This document shows positions 1,808-61,635 of a stretch of 64,000 nucleotides of DNA, one piece after another. Each line of letters starts with the position of its first letter. Within the stretch, counting starts at the first letter, position 1. The translations under genes were made by a program, and so were the position numbers. Origin of the DNA: Thermodesulfobacteriota bacterium (GTDB lineage: Bacteria; Desulfobacterota; Desulfarculia; JACQYL01); contig CAXXLZ010000002.1 in the NCBI GenBank assembly GCA_963675595.2, forward strand, positions 4,448,001-4,512,000. Direction: 5' to 3'. The notes beneath the pieces were generated by a model. The model made no database searches. It saw only the letters and a program-made list of their open reading frames with translations, and was not told the origin of the DNA.

Positions 1808-2386
1808 GTGCACCTGATCGTGGGATTGGGTAATCCCGGGAAAAAGTATTCCGGGTCCCGGCACAATCTGGGCTTCTTGGTCGTGGATCGTCTGGCGGAG
1901 AAACGGTCCATTCGAGTCCAATCCGCAAAGTTTTCGAGTCTTTACGGAAGAGGAAGCATTGAAGGATGTTCCGTCGTACTGGTCAAACCGCAGACGTTCA
2001 TGAACTTGAGTGGGGAGTCGGTGACGAAATGGGTTCACTATTTCGATCTCGCTCTGCATGAAGTGTTGATCGTGCATGATGACCTCGATCTGGAAACCGG
2101 AAGAATCAAGCTCGTGCGCAGCGGGGGCCCTGGAGGACACAAGGGAATGGACTCCATCATCCGGATGTTGGGAAGCAGAGAACTCCCTCGGTTGAAGCTG
2201 GGCATAGGGAGGCCGCGGTTCCATGAACCGGTGGAAGAATATGTACTGCGAGGTTTTTACGGCGACGAAGAGTCGGCCGTTGAAGAAAGTCTGAGAAATG
2301 CCGTCCCGGCCGTGGAAAGTTGGGTGATTCATGGTCCGGACAGAACGATGAACCAGGTGAATCAACATCAATTAACAAGGAGGTAG
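1808..2386 (+). CDS. pth: Peptidyl-tRNA hydrolase
   Basis: [45 protein letters not shown]. Confidence 0.95.
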
Positions 2387-2394
2387 AAAAGAAA

Positions 2395-4398
2395 ATGCTG
2401 GAATGGACGGTGTATGCACCCTTATTGGGTGGAGTAGGCATCATCGTAGCGTTCATGATTTACAGCTACGTGAAAAGCCAGCCCAACGGCAACGAGACCA
2501 TGCAGGAACTGGAAAGCATGATCCGCAAGGGAGCCATGGTCTTTCTGAAACGTGAATATTCGATCCTTTTCTTCTTCGCGGCGGCGGTGTTCGTTCTGCT
2601 TGGCGTGGGGCTGGGTTGGAATACCTCCATCGCCTATGCTTCCGGAGCGCTGTGTTCCATGTTCGCAGGCTTCTTCGGCATGACCGCGGCTACCAAGGGG
2701 AACTCGAGAACTGCGGAAGCCGCCAACAAACACGGCCGTGCCAAAGCGTTGAACATTTCCTACCTGAGCGGCTCGGTCATGGGACTTTCCGTGGCCTCCC
2801 TGGGTCTCCTGGGTGTGGGTGTGTTCTTCTATCTGTATGGTAAGGACCCGGCCACGGCCAGCACCATCAACGGCTTCGCCATGGGCGCCAGCTCCATCGC
2901 TCTGTTCGCACGTATGGGCGGCGGTATCTACACCAAGGCCGCCGACGTGGGTTCCGACTTGGTGGGTAAGGTGGAAGCGGGCATTCCCGAAGACGATCCG
3001 AGAAACCCGGGCGTTATCGCCGACAACGTGGGCGACAACGTGGGCGACATCGCCGGCATGGGTGCTGACATTTTCGAATCCTACGTGGGTTCGATCATCG
3101 CCACCATCGCCATCGGCGCCACCATGACCCTCACCAAGGAAGAAGAAGTCCTTAGATCCGCCTATATGGCCATTCCTCTGCTGGTGGTCATGGGCGGTCT
3201 CATAGCTTCCTTCCTGGGCGTGGCCTCCATCAAAGTGCTCAAGAACGCTGCTCCGGCGGCGGCCCTGCGCTACTCGACGTTCGTGGCGGCGGCCGGTTTG
3301 ATCGCGGCGACTTATTACGCGGTGAAGGGCCTGGGATTGCCCGTCGGCGTGTTCTGGGCGGTGATTTCCGGTCTGGTCGCCGGCATCATCATCGGCCTCT
3401 TGGCTGAGTACTACACATCCGGCGCTCCCGTTCGCAAGATCGCGGCTCAAACCCAAACCGGTCCGGCCACGGTGATCATCACCGGTATCGCCGTCGGTTT
3501 TGAAAGCTGCGCTCTGCCCCTGCTGGGAATCTGCGCCGCCACCTTCGTGGCCTATTACACGGCCGGGATGTTCGGGATCGGCATCAGCGCGGTGGGTATG
3601 CTGAGCACCGTCGGCGCCACCATGACCGTGGACGCTTACGGACCCATCGCGGACAACGCGGGGGGCATTTCGGAAATGGCGGGACTTGGGCCTGAGACCC
3701 GCGCCATCACGGACGAACTGGACGCTCTGGGCAACACCACCGCCGCCATCGGCAAAGGCTTTGCCATCGGTTCCGCGGCTCTCACCGCCCTGGCTCTGTT
3801 CGTGGCCTACAGCCAGGCAGCCGGTCTGAGCAATATCGACATCACCAATCCCTATGTGGTCATCGGCATCTTCATCGGCGGTATCGTTCCTTACCTGGTC
3901 GCCGCCATGACCATGACCGCCGTGGGCAAAGCGGCGAACGAAATGGTCGAAGAGATTCGCCGCCAGTTCCGCGAAATCCCCGGCCTCATGGAAGGCACCG
4001 GCAAGCCCGATCCGGCCCGTTGCGTGGACATCTGCACCCGGAGCGCGCTTAGGATGATGATCGCTCCCGGCTTGGTGGGTGTGTTGACCCCCGTGGCCGT
4101 GGGCTTCTTGATCGGACCCAACGCGCTGGGCGGCATGCTGGTCGGCGCAACGGTCACCGGCGTTCTGCTGGCACTGTTCATGGCCAATGCCGGTGGTGCG
4201 TGGGATAACGCCAAAAAGTACATCGAACAGGGACATCACGGCGGGAAGGGCTCCGACAACCACAAAGCCGCCGTGGTCGGCGATACCGTGGGCGACCCCT
4301 TCAAGGATACTTCCGGACCGACCATGAACATCCTCATCAAGTTGGTTTCGGTGGTGAGCTTGGTGATCGCTCCCCTTCTGCTCGTCTACTGGAAATAA
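2395..4398 (+). CDS. hppA: Membrane-bound ion-translocating pyrophosphatase, K+-dependent type (probably Na+-pumping)
   Basis: [45 protein letters not shown] (Ala at the K+-dependence position), [10 protein letters not shown]; start moved to ATG 2395 after AGGAGG. Confidence 0.93.
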
Positions 4399-56087: not shown

Positions 56088-57728
56088 TCAATACGCCAAC
56101 GCGTACCCGTCGCCCCTAGGGTCGGCCCCTCCCTGCAACACGCCGGTGTTCTTGTCTCTCAGAATGCCCTGGGCGTGACCCATGTTCCAGGTCCAGTCGT
56201 CGAGCACGTTGACCTCGTGTCCCAGGTCGAACAGTTTCCGGATGACCGAGGAAGAGATTCTTCCTTCCAGGTTGAACATGGATTTGGGGTCCCCGAGGAT
56301 AACGCTGCCGTGGAGCCATCGAGGGGCTTCGATGGCCTGCTGCATGTGCATGCCGAAGTCGAGCACATTGCTGATCACGGCCAGATGGGTTTGAGGTTGG
56401 CCGTCTCCCCCCATGCTGCCGAAAACCATAAAGAGCTCGTCCGATTCGTCGAATACCATGGAGGCGATGAGGGTGTGCATGGTGCGCTTGCCGGGTTCCA
56501 GGCGGTTCACGTGGGTGGGGTCCAGGGAGAAATAGGCTCCCCGGTTCTGGGGAATGATGCCCGTGCCGGGCACCGCCATGCCGCAGCCGAAAGGAAAATA
56601 GATGCTCTGGATGCAGGATACGGCATTGCCCCATTGATCCATGATCGCAAAGTAGGTGGTGTCCCCCCGAGGGTCCCCGGCCGGCGCCGGCGAAGACATG
56701 GCGCGATCCGGGTTCAACAGGGACCGTCTCCGGTCGGCATAGTCCTTGCTCATTAGTTCATCCAGGGGAATGTCGGCGAATTCCGGGTCCGTGATGTACC
56801 GATCCCGGTCGGCGCAGGCCGTCTTCTTGGCTTCGCACATGAGGTGCAGGCATTCCGCGGAATTGTGCCCCAGGGAACGCACGTCGAAGGCTTCCATGAG
56901 ATTGAATTCCTGGATCGCCTGGAGCCCCTGGGTGTTGGGCGGAGTCTCGTAAATCCGATAGCCTCGATAGGTGGTGGAAATGGGGTCTCCCCAGTCGGAA
57001 TGGTGACCATGCAAATCCTCCTCCCCAAGGAAACCGCCCACACTGTGGGAGAATTGGAGCATCTTCTCGGCGATCTCTCCTCGGTAGAACCCGTCCCGCC
57101 CGTGCGCCGCCAAGGTGCGTAACGTGCGGGCCAGGTCCTTCTGAATCAGGACGTCGCCGGCGCGGGGAGCCCTGCCGCTAGGAAAGAAAATTTCAGCGAA
57201 GGACGGGAACACGTTGAGGTCCTCATGACCCGCGATCCACCACGCAACCTGGTGGCTCAAGGGAAAACCGTCTTCGGCGTAACGGATCGCCGGAGCCAGC
57301 AGGTCCTTCCAATCCATGGAACCGTATCGGTTGAGCACCTCATGCCATCCGTCCACGCATCCGGGCACGGTGATCATGGCCATGGGACCTCGGAACGGGA
57401 TGGCGTTGAGTCCACGGCTTCTGAAATAGTCTCCGTGGGCCGCCCGCGCCGCACGGCCGCTGCCGTTGAGAAACACGACCTTGCCTTCCCGCGCGGGGAA
57501 GAGCAGGTAGAACACGTCGCCCCCCACGCCGCACATGTGAGGCTGAGTCACGTTGAGTACGGCATTGACCGCCACCGCGGCGTCAAAGGCGTTGCCGCCT
57601 CGTTTCAAAACGTCGAGGCCCGTGTCCGAAGCCAGAGGATGAGCCGACGCCACTACGCCTCGACGACCCATGACCGCGGGTCTGGCCGCGAACGCGTCGC
57701 CGCCGATGAGGGGAGAGTGCAATGCCAT
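56088..57728 (-). CDS. ggt: Gamma-glutamyltransferase family protein (cytoplasmic, no signal peptide)
   Basis: GGNAFDAAVA, GVGGD, TVPGCVDGW, PPNTQG, GDTT autocleavage site, PGKRTMHT, GGDGQPQ, GADPRGDG. Confidence 0.92.
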   Translation of the reverse strand: MALHSPLIGGDAFAARPAVMGRRGVVASAHPLASDTGLDVLKRGGNAFDAAVAVNAVLNVTQPHMCGVGGDVFYLLFPAREGKVVFLNGSGRAARAAHGDYFRSRGLNAIPFRGPMAMITVPGCVDGWHEVLNRYGSMDWKDLLAPAIRYAEDGFPLSHQVAWWIAGHEDLNVFPSFAEIFFPSGRAPRAGDVLIQKDLARTLRTLAAHGRDGFYRGEIAEKMLQFSHSVGGFLGEEDLHGHHSDWGDPISTTYRGYRIYETPPNTQGLQAIQEFNLMEAFDVRSLGHNSAECLHLMCEAKKTACADRDRYITDPEFADIPLDELMSKDYADRRRSLLNPDRAMSSPAPAGDPRGDTTYFAIMDQWGNAVSCIQSIYFPFGCGMAVPGTGIIPQNRGAYFSLDPTHVNRLEPGKRTMHTLIASMVFDESDELFMVFGSMGGDGQPQTHLAVISNVLDFGMHMQQAIEAPRWLHGSVILGDPKSMFNLEGRISSSVIRKLFDLGHEVNVLDDWTWNMGHAQGILRDKNTGVLQGGADPRGDGYALAY

Positions 57729-58097
57729 GGTCGCTCCCGTTGTGACAGGTTTCCGCCTGCTTCCGAAGATATCCGGTATCCGTTCAGAGGATATACCGCG
57801 GGGGGACGCCGTCCCCCCGGACCCCCGTTGCGTTTTTTCGAATCGCGTACGCGATTCGAAAAACGAGCGGCATGTGCCGTCCAGCCGATTAAAACATCTG
57901 AAGCTTTCAAAAAGGGTTCCTTCGGATACCCTTCCGAATGCTCATCCACCTTGTGAAAGTGATCAATGGTACCTCAAGAGAATCCGGTATTGCATCTCCT
58001 TTACCGGATCGTTGAAGGATGCGATGCGCGGCAAGCGCTTCGTCCTTTTTGTCCATTCACGGAATTTCTTTGCCGATTCACGAAAAGTCAAGATCAG

Positions 58098-58181
58098 CCT
58101 CTCCGCCGAAGGCGGTGAGGCCCGTCCAAAGTGCTTTGGGAGGGGGTTTCGGGGGAGGACTTTCTCGAAAGTCCTCCCCCG
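58098..58181 (+). repeat. Palindromic repeat, family R1
   Basis: GCCTCTCCGCCGAAGGCGGTGAGGC...GGGGGAGGACTTTCTCGAAAGTCCTCCCCC. Confidence 0.75.
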
Positions 58182-58284
58182 TGCATTGCGACGAACACCG
58201 GACGCGGAACGCCTCGCTTGTTCTCGTTCCGAGGACCGAACTATAATGGGAATGGTTCACTTTGGGGGATCTTGTTATGGGTTC

Positions 58285-58967
58285 CCCGGGGAACGGCATC
58301 ACCCCGGCCCCCCGGATGCGGGCTCCGTCTCTATCGGGACGAAGTCCCGGACTTTGGCCCTTTATGATAATGCTTGGAACATGATTTGCACGAAATACCT
58401 AATTAATTGCGTATAGTGCAGCGGATTTCAGATTGGGTCTTGTATTTCCGTGCGTTCGTGCCGGAGTCCCTATGTGCACCAACGTCTCAAGAATTTTCGA
58501 GCCGGCATCGAGTCGGGAATATTCTACCTCAAACGCTGTCTTGGGTTGGATCGCTGCAACTAATAAGGGTGGCGCTTCTTCCAGAGCTATGTGCGGGCCT
58601 TGATCGTTTCGGGCAACCTGCTCACGCTTGCTAGGCCAAGTACTGCGGATTAACCTGCAGGAAGAACATTGTTACCGCACATGCATGGAGCATCTCAGGA
58701 TACGAGTGTCATCATAACCACAAGTATTGACGAATAAAATTGCATAGCATCGGTTTAACCAACAGAATACTCTATGTGGCCGGCAACCACCGAACCCGAC
58801 CATAAGTCTGCAATCAGGCCTTTATGGGAATATACTAGCCGTTAGAAGGTTGTAGGATAAATGTTCAAGAAAATATTATTGATTAACTATCTTATTCGGT
58901 ATAATTCACGCAAATTACAGATAGTCAAAGGCCATACAGGTAGGGGCGGTTCGCGAACCGCCCCTAC
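58285..58967 (+). repeat. Structured AT-rich non-coding element, copy A (with an extra 311-nt domain), ending in a GTAG REP
   Basis: Aligns without gaps to 60171-60540 apart from 58383-58693; long-range stems; GTAGGGGCGGTTCGCGAACCGCCCCTAC at 58940-58967. Confidence 0.8.
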
Positions 58968-59039
58968 GGGAGGATGTTAGCCGATTCAGCGGATGTCAGG
59001 AACGTTGGGAACTGGTGAGGAAACCCGGTTTGTTCAGCA

Positions 59040-59124
59040 GCCTCTCCCCCGAAAGCGGTGAGGCCTGTCCAAGGTGCTTTGCAAGGGGGTTTCGGGGGAG
59101 GATCTTCCCGAAAGTCCTCCCCCG
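59040..59124 (+). repeat. Palindromic repeat, family R1
   Basis: Close copy of 58098-58181. Confidence 0.75.
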
Positions 59125-59223
59125 TGAATCCGCATCTAGAATAAGTCGTAACCCGGAGTTGCAGCCGGGGGCTTTTTGAAATTCCTCGAACGGGGAGTGC
59201 GATCAACCGGAAGGGAGGAATGC

Positions 59224-60162
59224 ATGAAACGGATGGTTTTGGTCGTTGCGGGGATGTGCGCGTTGGTGGGAGCTTCGGCGTGGGGGGCGTTCGCCGCCCG
59301 CATGGAGAACCAAATCGTGATTCCGGTGCAGTGGGACTACTGCCTGTTTCGCATCACCGCGCCCGGAGGGGCGGACGTGACCATCGACATGGGTCTGATC
59401 GCCGAGCAGGGCGATCTCAACCTGTACCTCAAGTACGGGGCACCTCCCTATCCGGACTTTGACTACAAATCGGACAACTACGGACTGCACGACGAACAGA
59501 TCGTTCTGGAGAACCCCATGTCCGGCGTGTGGTACCTGGAGATCAACGCCCGCTATCAGGGGGAAGCGCTTTTCTATCTGGACGACGGGGATGCCGGAGT
59601 CGTGTTGGAATGGATCGGTGGGGCGTTGGACGCGGCTTTCTCCGCCTCCTCGCCCAGAGAGGGACCGGCGCCCTTGACGGTCGCCTTCAGCGGCGACGCA
59701 TCCGGAGGCGACATTCAGTCCTATTCGTGGGACTTCGGAGACGGTTCTTCCGTGGAGGGACAGGCTGAACCCACGCACACCTACACAGCGCCGGGAGTGT
59801 ACACGGTGACCCTCACCGTGAGCGACGGGGACACGGACAACGCGGAGACCAAAGCGGACTATGTCACCGTAACAGCCGCCGCTCCCGCCGACGGCGTGTG
59901 GAAGACGTCCGACAACTTGGCCTTCTTTCTTCAGAAATACGCCACAGGCTCCTGCATCGTGGTGGTGTATGGAGCCTGCCCCACGGTGTTTCTGGATGCC
60001 GACTACACGGACGGCGTGGACTGCCCGGACCTGGAAGGAGCGGGCTACCGGATGCGGTTGGACCTGACGGACGCTTCTCACGGAACCCTGACGGCCGACT
60101 TGCCGGAAGAATCCGTGAACCAACCGGCGGAACTGGTCTTCCCCACGGCGGAGACTTTTTAA
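59224..60162 (+). CDS. Secreted protein: PPC domain, PKD domain and the C-terminal domain shared with the 1373-aa protein
   Basis: Signal peptide; DLNLYLKYGAPP...DEQI.L.NP.SG.WY (PPC); YSWDFGDG...HTYTAPGVYTVTLTV (PKD); GGAGG before ATG 59224. Confidence 0.85.
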   Translation: MKRMVLVVAGMCALVGASAWGAFAARMENQIVIPVQWDYCLFRITAPGGADVTIDMGLIAEQGDLNLYLKYGAPPYPDFDYKSDNYGLHDEQIVLENPMSGVWYLEINARYQGEALFYLDDGDAGVVLEWIGGALDAAFSASSPREGPAPLTVAFSGDASGGDIQSYSWDFGDGSSVEGQAEPTHTYTAPGVYTVTLTVSDGDTDNAETKADYVTVTAAAPADGVWKTSDNLAFFLQKYATGSCIVVVYGACPTVFLDADYTDGVDCPDLEGAGYRMRLDLTDASHGTLTADLPEESVNQPAELVFPTAETF

Positions 60163-60170
60163 TTGGTTTG

Positions 60171-60540
60171 CCGGGGGAACACGGTTCCCCCGGACCCCCT
60201 TGTGTGGGCTTCGTCCCTTTCGGGACGAAGTCCCGGACTTTGGCCCTTTGTGATAATGCCTGGAGCATCCCAAGATACGTGTCTCATCATAACCACAAGT
60301 ATTGACGAATAAAATTGCAGAGCATCGGTTTAACCAACAGAATATTCTATGCGGCGGGCAACCACCGAACCCGACCGTAAGTCGGGAATCAGGTCTTTAT
60401 GATTAGACACTAACCGTTAGAAGGGAAAATAATAAATTATCAAGGAAAGTTTATTGATTCTCTATTTTATGCGGAATAATTCACGCAAATTACAAATAGT
60501 CAAAGGCCATACAGGTAGGGGCGGTTCGCGAACCGCCCCC
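60171..60540 (+). repeat. Structured AT-rich non-coding element, copy B
   Basis: About 87% identical by hand alignment to 58681-58964; starts with hairpin GGGCTTCGTCCC/GGGACGAAGTCC and ends in a GTAG REP at 60515. Confidence 0.8.
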
Positions 60541-60568
60541 CCGCAAGTGCTCAGGAGCAACGAATCTT

Positions 60569-61474
60569 TCAGCAAGTCCGATAATCGGTTAGGAACAACC
60601 CCGGAAAATGCGACGTGCATTCCATGACGTGCGTAATGGCATTGAAGTCGTATTCGTCTCCCGACCGATAGTCGGTGAAGAACGCGTTGACCCGCTTCAC
60701 CCTTTCCGGCCGGGTTCCCACGGCCTGCAATCCCAGAGACACTCCGAAGTTGGTGAAGGCGAATTTGATCTCCGTCATGCCCGGTCCGCGGCAGAAGTAG
60801 CCGGGGGGATCGATCCACAGCCGGTCCAGCATGGAAAGGGACGCCGCTCGTTGGGCTTGGGCCCACCGCTCCTCGGGAAAGAAATGGGTCATCCAGAGCA
60901 TCATTCCCAGGCCCAGGTCCTGGGCGATTTGCAGGGAAGGGTAGCTCAGGTCCGCCAATGCTTTCATTTCCCGTATTTCATGGGAGAGCGCTTTTTTATC
61001 CAATAGGCGATAGACCACGTAGCCGTGGAAGGCGTCCAGTGCGCCGAATCCGTAACCCGGATAGGGGCCGCTCAGGTCTTCGAGCATTTTCCAATGGACC
61101 CCCACGCCCGGAACCACGAATGCTGGGTGGATTTGCCGCACCAACTTCAGGGCCCGGGCGCGGTAGGCCGGAATGGTGTCGCCCAGCCGAGTCAGAGCGA
61201 AGACCCACATGCCCAGGTAGTGGAAGTACTGCCCGTCGCGATCCGGTTCTTCTCCGATGCGCACGCCGCGAGTCCGCCCCAGGACCCGATCCACCTCGGA
61301 TACGACTTCTTCGGCTTGTTTTAGGAATCGGCGGTCTTTGAGTTCCAGGTAGAGCCCGGTGAGGAGCACCACTCCGAAGGCGTCGGTCCACAGGTATCGC
61401 AGGCCGTTGGGCCAGATTCCTTGTTCCCGCATCCATTGAAGCTTGTCCAACACGAAAGGGATGTCTCTCTCCAT
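60569..61474 (-). CDS. Conserved uncharacterised protein (RYLWTDAF / DGQYFHYL family)
   Basis: GGAGG RBS before ATG 61474; motifs RYLWTDAFG, DRDGQYFHYL..W, WKM..DLS, DLGLGM, AFTNFG, AITHVM. Confidence 0.75.
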   Translation of the reverse strand: MERDIPFVLDKLQWMREQGIWPNGLRYLWTDAFGVVLLTGLYLELKDRRFLKQAEEVVSEVDRVLGRTRGVRIGEEPDRDGQYFHYLGMWVFALTRLGDTIPAYRARALKLVRQIHPAFVVPGVGVHWKMLEDLSGPYPGYGFGALDAFHGYVVYRLLDKKALSHEIREMKALADLSYPSLQIAQDLGLGMMLWMTHFFPEERWAQAQRAASLSMLDRLWIDPPGYFCRGPGMTEIKFAFTNFGVSLGLQAVGTRPERVKRVNAFFTDYRSGDEYDFNAITHVMECTSHFPGLFLTDYRTC

Positions 61475-61489
61475 GGCTATCCTCCATTC

Positions 61490-61635
61490 GGCAGGCCGCC
61501 GCAAACCGCGACCTGCGGCGTTGCACTTCATCCCTAGTCACTGCGGCGTACTCCATGTACGCCTCCTTCCTCGGGATTTGCGCGCCTTGCATGTCATCGG
61601 TTTTCGACGGCCTGCGGCAACCGGACTCTTTTCCT
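61490..61635. mobile_element. Degenerate second copy of the MITE-like element
   Basis: CGTTGCACTTCATCCCT.GTCACTGCG.CGTACTC.ATGTACG...GGATTTGCGCGCCTTGCAT matches 48297-48448. Confidence 0.75.

Follow-up and report, generated by a model that had tools for sequence, protein, structure and literature searches.

The two copies of an AT-rich repeat found in the window are very probably the relics of a single nested transposition, in which one insertion sequence (IS) entered another, and do not represent a new RNA. The window, i.e., the whole stretch of 64,000 nucleotides that was analysed, corresponds to G000:C2:4448001-4512000 and is part of a 6.79-Mb genome (G000) with a GC content of 56%. A reading of the sequence alone had proposed a new structured RNA of 270 to 580 nt or, alternatively, a mobile or non-autonomous element possibly moved by an HUH/RAYT enzyme, and had stated that matching a decayed protein-coding gene would speak against the RNA. 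Its alternative was right in kind, as both copies appear to be internally deleted, non-coding IS derivatives that have kept the two termini of one IS. The outer part of the repeat is homologous to an IS701-family element, here called X, and the inner part to an ISNCY-family IS.

The segments 58681-58964 (copy A) and 60256-60539 (copy B) can be aligned without gaps, as the sequence-only reading had stated, and share 87% identity. Its estimate of about 36 substitutions without codon periodicity was also confirmed: 36 substitutions occur over the 260 shared nucleotides before the REP sequence, and they are distributed over the three phases as 13, 12, and 11. The 105 nt located upstream are likewise similar in the two copies (58278-58382 versus 60164-60268, 81% identity), which means that A corresponds to B with about 300 additional nt (58383-58680). 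This extra segment of A is flanked by two 13-nt stretches, 58370-58382 and 58681-58693, which are alike at 11 of 13 positions, and a hybrid of both stretches is located in B at 60256-60268. The complete elements have lengths of 593 nt (A) and 282 nt (B) and contain no intact ORF. The cores of the copies have a GC content of only 37 to 39%, and this AT-richness is the usual composition of non-coding IS ends in a genome with 56% GC. A and B are present in the same orientation with 1.2 kb between them (1.9 kb from start to start). The intervening region harbors a plus-strand gene for a secreted protein with PPC and PKD domains (59176-60162; Pfam PKD_4, 9.8e-20; PPC, 7.2e-07), which probably starts with the ATG at 59226 and lies outside the element. 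When the entire 6.79-Mb genome was searched with sensitive blastn and nhmmer settings, copies of the core were found only in A, in B, and in the parent IS described below.

The parent of the inner part was identified by means of the ~300-nt extra segment of A, which matches C2:3831430-3831655 with 86% identity; at that locus the core continues immediately downstream. C2:3831430-3831655 forms the 3′ end of an ORF of 455 aa, and what follows the stop codon of this ORF corresponds to the core shared by A and B. The ORF encodes an ISNCY-family transposase with the Pfam domains DDE_Tnp_1 and DUF772 (NF033593, 442.8 bits versus a cut-off of 325, scored for the parent copy alone, L031 3961-5328 on the minus strand). 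The sole full ISNCY copy of G000 (G000:C2:3829600-3832968) has inserted into the end of an element of the IS1380 family; its 11-nt termini match each other, and a target duplication of 6 bp fixes the borders of the full element. The 3′ non-coding region of this ISNCY copy is interrupted by a second IS1380 copy of 1,667 nt, without which the ISNCY sequence comprises about 1.7 kb. Elements of the ISDol1 group are 1.6 to 1.9 kb long and cause duplications of 6 to 7 bp.

At the DNA level, the full IS copy and copy A are 82% identical over 317 nt. Copy A has retained the last 64 codons of the transposase gene and its stop codon (58459-58653, plus strand), which according to tblastn are in frame and show 81% identity to residues 392 to 455; two in-frame stop codons are present at 58561-58566. 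Copy A thus carries the C-terminus of a transposase, and the decayed protein-coding gene that had been named as speaking against an RNA was in fact found. The coding remnant is followed by the 3′ non-coding region of the IS (58654-58835, plus strand), which was delimited by alignment with the copies described in the following and by the 6-bp duplication of the full copy. In total, the window retains the last 380 nt of the ISNCY IS in A and the last 155 nt in B, the latter being entirely non-coding (60256-60410, plus strand, based on alignments with ISNCY relatives).

The right end of the ISNCY IS was located with the help of relatives. In genome G001, which belongs to a sister genus, eight ISNCY right ends are present, and all of them finish at an identical ...GACAC. 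Their flanks are unrelated from 0 to 3 nt outside this end, mostly past a common TA or TAG. A 94%-identical ISNCY copy on a metagenome contig (L054) has the same ...GACAC end, giving a total of nine different flanks together with G001. The combination of a common end with differing flanks places the right end of the ISNCY IS at positions 58835 (A) and 60410 (B). Of the two ISNCY termini, only the right terminal inverted repeat is left in the window; it is intact in B (60397-60410, plus strand) and decayed in A (58822-58835, plus strand).

The ISNCY element also contains an internal repeat-like site (58706-58717 in A and 60279-60292 in B, both on the plus strand), which precedes the right terminal inverted repeat by ~130 nt. 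Such a site was found in all relatives examined, at a distance of 93 to 136 nt from the right end. Among these relatives are four elements with a transposase identity of only ~50%; in their case MAFFT placed the site out of register, and the comparison was made through anchored extraction. We know of no previous description of an internal repeat-like site near an ISNCY right end, and its position ~90 to 140 nt inside the right end of one ISNCY lineage, with retention even in relatives that share only ~50% transposase identity, may be of interest to the IS field. The presence of seven matches of ~135 nt in G001 suggested that the 130-nt stretch from the internal site to the right end might be a miniature element (MITE), and this idea was rejected. 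Six of these matches are located at the last bases of their contigs (C25, C27, C47, C132, C126, and C127) and the one on C56 at the first base, which indicates assembly breaks within full IS copies. The constant match length of ~135 nt presumably reflects the word size of the assembler. The sole contig-internal match in G001, on C102, is a shortened end of 72 nt.

The sequences enclosing the ISNCY remnant in A and B correspond to the two termini of X. Intact X is present on contig C68 of G001 (L049, 1 to ~1820), and X also occurs in genome G002. It codes for a transposase of 446 aa (L049 53-1393, minus strand) and for an upstream ORF of 94 aa, both of which are oriented opposite to the plus strand of the window. 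The transposase contains a DDE_5 domain (Pfam, 3.5e-14) and was assigned to the IS701 family by NF049999 with a narrow margin (177.4 bits versus a cut-off of 170). Profile searches with the 94-aa ORF gave no family match.

Terminus 1 of X is present in A as a stretch of 112 nt (58347-58458, minus strand) that includes the last ~19 codons of the transposase gene and its stop codon. Blastn revealed 82% identity between 58349-58458 and positions 3 to 112 of X from G001 (L049), and three further X ends of G001 and G002 support the assignment; in tblastn, residues 413 to 446 of the X transposase showed 56% identity to the window. In B only the first 36 nt of terminus 1 are left (60233-60268, minus strand), of which 60235-60268 are 88% identical to positions 3 to 36 of X (blastn) and of which the last 13 nt (60256-60268) form the hybrid deletion junction. 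The AT-rich 104 nt located 3′ of the ISNCY end (58836-58939 in A and 60411-60514 in B, both minus strand) align with the other terminus of X, i.e., the AT-rich region upstream of its operon, in G001 and G002, and are 83% identical between B and A. This terminus 2 also aligns with a solo remnant in G000 (L032, C2:1876576-1876671), which is 76% identical to X and 77 to 81% identical to B and A. The match between A and L032 (58857-59047, 81% identity) extends past the end of X into the REP and a repeat array. The assignment of the right terminus of A and B to X is a transitive one via L032, combined with the alignment with the termini from G001 and G002.

Neither intact X nor its transposase was detected in G000, where the best tblastn match had an identity of only 25% and is part of a different IS701-type IS. 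As X is nowhere intact in G000, its assignment relies on DNA identities of 76 to 88% over stretches of ~35 to 110 nt with elements of other genera. The alignments show that both termini of X are retained in A as well as in B and that the inverted repeats are short. The "ends that pair" of the sequence-only reading are therefore the terminal inverted repeats of X; an inverted repeat indeed exists at this place, but it is weak. The insertion point of the ISNCY IS within X is a palindrome upstream of the X genes. Neither a target-site duplication of X nor any direct repeat at the borders was identified for A and B.

Outside the element, both copies are bordered by REP-type hairpins, in agreement with the earlier statement that each copy is preceded by a hairpin and followed by a GTAG REP. 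The hairpins on the 5′ side belong to one REP-like GC-rich family with ~15 to 27 copies in the genome. The hairpin of A (58278-58346) ends 0 to 2 nt before the IS terminus, and that of B (60164-60232) begins 2 nt past the stop codon of the PKD-domain gene. On the 3′ side, the same GTAG-type palindrome follows both copies (58940-58967 and 60515-60542), and its 25-nt core occurs in exact form at at least 10 other loci. The left REP flanks of A and B share 75% identity, and the core of the right REP does not differ between them. The ends of X were found within 0 to 3 nt of a hairpin at six of six left and five of five right junctions examined, which comprised C38, C3, C87, and C68 of G001, G002, and A, B, and L032, with A and B not being independent; this adjacency is an observation on these junctions. 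The direct contact of the ends of an IS701-family element with REP hairpins, seen in three genomes, may be of interest to the IS field. Two REP pairs spaced by ~1.3 kb (C2:563800-565180 and C2:1199415-1200831) were considered as further insertions and dismissed, as they enclose ordinary GC-rich coding-like sequence.

The junctions and homologies described above are consistent with the following history. X, an IS701-family element of ~1.8 kb with a transposase gene and the 94-aa ORF, would have inserted between REP-type hairpins, and the ISNCY-family IS of ~1.7 kb would then have entered the palindrome just upstream of the X genes. An illegitimate deletion at a short microhomology (58456-58462) would have eliminated ~1.3 kb from the start of the ISNCY element together with the greater part of X; the product, copy A, would have consisted of 112 nt of X terminus 1, the ISNCY 3′ end, and 104 nt of X terminus 2. 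This A-type structure would have been copied once, and one of the copies would subsequently have lost a further ~300 nt between the 13-nt imperfect direct repeats, the microhomology in this case being provided by the X stretch 58370-58382 (plus strand) and the ISNCY stretch 58681-58693, which would have resulted in copy B. The fact that A and B have the same ISNCY/X junction argues for their common descent from one nested insertion. The steps themselves follow from the junctions and homologies; their order and the lack of a present function are what we infer. Both copies are devoid of coding capacity and most likely of function, and they undergo neutral decay.

Several properties of the repeat that had been taken to indicate an RNA can be attributed to the two ISs. 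An Rfam search of positions 57000-61500 on both strands gave no match at E ≤ 1. The "inner long-range stem" consists of the right terminal inverted repeat of the ISNCY IS paired with the internal repeat-like site. In B this stem is present but imperfect, with 13 of 14 positions paired and a C.U at 60285/60403; in A it is degraded to eight Watson-Crick pairs, three G-U pairs, and three mismatches. In the close ISNCY ends, the stem is 81% paired, as counted in six close sequences (four further rows were gaps), and 413 of 500 shuffles reach this value. The supposed C-G to G-U change within the stem does not represent a compensatory exchange: four of six close ISNCY ends keep a G.G mismatch, which is the ancestral state, and A and B each changed one side independently. 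The second cited example, the G-C/A-U pair at 58856/58891, also failed as evidence for covariation. Among five X homologues this pair is A-U in one, G-C in one, and unpaired in three, and its helix is 65% paired, a value reached by 417 of 500 shuffles.

Covariation was also analyzed for the whole minimum-energy fold of B, which comprises 70 pairs. In A, 45 of these pairs are unchanged, 6 are kept by a change on one side and 2 by changes on both sides, and 17 are broken. When the substitutions were placed at random, 14.9 ± 2.3 pairs were broken and 0.63 double changes were obtained (P(≥2) = 0.115), and the claimed covariation is thus no better than chance in tests that have low power with two copies plus four to eight IS homologues. 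Threading of A on the fold of B gave an energy of −14.2 kcal/mol, compared to −58.2 kcal/mol for B. In comparison with shuffled sequences, the fold of B had z-scores of −2.46 on the plus strand and −2.52 on the minus strand, and that of A a z-score of +0.60. The proposed preference for the plus strand was therefore not observed: the excess of B is equal on both strands, which is what DNA inverted repeats produce, and A shows none. Since IS homology covers every nucleotide of both copies and the low-power tests lend no support to an RNA, the interpretation as a new structured RNA of 270 to 580 nt is not supported.

A comparison with contigs of a related strain (study P2) provided additional information on the two copies. 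In these contigs, B shows 0 to 2 differences in 240 to 359 nt. The corresponding values are 22 of 801 for A, 31 to 32 of 1,107 for the gene in between, 15 of 365 for the downstream flank, and 4 of 424 for the region 57700-58123. As the contigs hold both copies, the duplication predates the split of the strains. The near-invariance of B could be caused by a constraint on this copy or, equally, by mosaic recombination, with which the few differences in 57700-58123 would agree, or by a mixture of strains in contigs of low depth.

The origin of the second copy may also be explained by transposition. According to this possible but rather unlikely explanation, an A-like chimera would have behaved like a MITE: an X transposase no longer present in the genome would have mobilised it in trans, and it would have landed again beside REP hairpins. 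Both X termini are present in both copies, A and B have homologous flanks only where these consist of members of multi-copy REP families, with the homology stopping right past them, and the adjacency of X ends to hairpins at all junctions examined would fit a REP-directed choice of targets. However, only two copies exist, neither of them with a visible target-site duplication, and G000 lacks the X transposase. The distance of 1.2 kb and the same orientation also fit a local duplication, and the similarity of the left and right REP flanks would allow for a duplication that included the REPs. Given these observations, mobilisation in trans is no more likely than a local duplication. An extended version, which we regard as improbable, holds that the A-like chimera was itself mobile and was reinserted by a REP-directed IS701-family transposase and that B later became constrained, for instance as an RNA or terminator module at the 3′ end of the PKD gene; such a constraint would explain the near-invariance of B between the strains. 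It is highly improbable that B or both copies function as a plus-strand structured non-coding RNA, be it new or exapted from IS debris. The fold z-score of B and the fact that B is almost invariant between two strains whose surrounding sequences differ by 2.8 to 4% would be in line with such a function, but the minus strand folds equally well, A folds no better than shuffled sequences and breaks 17 of the 70 pairs, with the loss of folding energy given above, neither of the cited compensatory pairs holds up in outgroups, Rfam gave no match, and the sequence is wholly explained by IS homology.

We attach hardly any probability to a REP-associated element moved by an HUH (RAYT/Y1) transposase. 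REP-type hairpins do occur on both sides of both copies, and the genome encodes three proteins with a Y1_Tnp domain. However, the hairpins are separate multi-copy families that are present at many loci without the element, and the termini and the interior come from two DDE-type ISs. The Y1_Tnp genes are far from the window, as they are located on C1 or, where they are on C2, at a distance of more than 1 Mb. The suggested HUH/RAYT mover is at odds with the fact that both parents encode DDE transposases. In genome-wide blastn and nhmmer searches, no REPIN-like core copies bounded by REP pairs were found. Unlike in REP/RAYT systems of the REPIN type, the REPs at this locus are flanks contributed by other families, and Y1 genes are distant.

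The parent of the inner part resembles the ISNCY family in its NF033593 transposase with DDE_Tnp_1 and DUF772 domains, its terminal inverted repeats, its 6-bp duplication, and its length of ~1.7 kb; the copies in the window differ from it in being shortened non-coding remnants. ISNCY is the "not classified yet" category of ISfinder and includes the IS1202 and ISDol1 groups (PMC10132070, PMC8147514). With the IS701 family, X from G001 shares the NF049999/DDE_5 transposase and short terminal inverted repeats, and the window has retained both termini. In contrast to this family, no transposase is present in the window or in G000, and X has an additional 94-aa ORF and adjoins REP hairpins at both ends. 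Like MITEs and other non-autonomous IS derivatives, A and B are short, non-coding, and AT-rich, carry the inverted repeats of an autonomous IS at their ends, and can form a long hairpin on either strand. Unlike these, they are represented by two copies and one solo terminus, show no target duplication, and have no autonomous partner in the genome; moreover, what they enclose is part of another, unrelated IS and not a plain deletion product. The position of the IS ends directly beside REP palindromes, both in the window and in X, is shared with REP-targeting ISs, which have been reported for the IS3, IS110, IS4, IS256, and IS5 families (Tobes & Pareja 2006, PMC1525189). The text of PMC1525189 contains no mention of IS701.

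A pair of nested IS remnants is in itself an ordinary finding, and its wider import is small. For the annotation of this genome it means that the region should be read as the remnants of two insertion sequences and not as a candidate RNA. It also calls for caution in similar cases, as terminal and subterminal inverted repeats of ISs, when present in two diverged copies, mimic long-range RNA stems with seemingly compensatory changes.

Copies A (58347-58939) and B (60233-60514) of the window share as their core the 3' end of an ISNCY-family insertion sequence, of which a full copy lies elsewhere in the genome under study (L031; G000:C2:3829600-3832968). Comparison of the right ends of L031, the metagenome contig L054 (1090-1226) and the further loci L055-L060 revealed, at a distance of 93-136 nt from the right end, an internal site that is similar to the terminal inverted repeat of this ISNCY lineage and is in inverted orientation. 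The site is present at 58706-58717 in copy A and at 60279-60292 in copy B, and it is retained even where transposase identity is only ~50%. The site may serve as an additional place for transposase binding, or it may form a hairpin. L054, a 1763-nt contig whose record is titled Woesearchaeota MAG, carries a copy of the bacterial ISNCY transposase (94% identical) and its right end; mis-binning of the contig is a more probable explanation than an archaeal insertion sequence.

Two copies of an IS1380-family element, whose transposase has 460 aa (NF033539, 328 bits), were found at L031 (G000:C2). One (2159-3825, minus-strand index of L031) lies within the 3' region of the ISNCY copy, and the other (about 5470-6001 of L031) was the target of the ISNCY insertion, resulting in a three-layer nest of insertion sequences.

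Contigs of a related strain (study P2) were compared with the window at 60171-60529, 58154-58954, and 59093-60199. Copy B (within 60171-60529) showed 0-2 differences, whereas copy A, the PKD gene between the copies, and the downstream gene were 2.7-4.1% different in the same contigs. In run X1, a variant contig over 58458-58662 had a depth of ~105, compared to ~16 for the surrounding genome, and extended upstream into ISNCY transposase sequence. Depth and continuation together indicate that the sample contained more full ISNCY copies than the assembled genome shows; the surplus stems from copies that were collapsed or from other organisms.

Intergenic stretches in this part of the window consist of arrayed GC-rich interspersed repeats of at least four families (58094-58186, 58968-59129, 57796-57945, and 60160-60243), with roughly 140, 60-100, 30-60, and 15-27 copies by blastn. 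The genome has three above-cut-off matches to Y1_Tnp (PF01797), at C1:1663050-1663400, C2:143813-144133, and C2:3350153-3350401. These are candidate RAYT or IS200-type genes, with a possible link to the many REP copies.

GC-rich REP-type hairpins adjoin both ends of X, the IS701-family element whose termini are kept in copies A and B, at a spacing of 0-3 nt. This holds true for 6/6 left and 5/5 right junctions in three genomes, counts that include A and B, which are not independent of each other: 58320-58350, 58935-58967, 60206-60235, and 60510-60542 in the window, 2150-2200 of the solo remnant L032, L049 (1-1860) and L050-L052 in the sister-genus genome G001, and L035 (1440-1610) and L053 (1-90) in G002. 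The adjoining hairpins differ in sequence. No report of REP-directed target choice in the IS701 family was found in one paper on REP targeting (PMC1525189). The adjacency observed here may be due to such REP-directed target choice by the IS701-family element.
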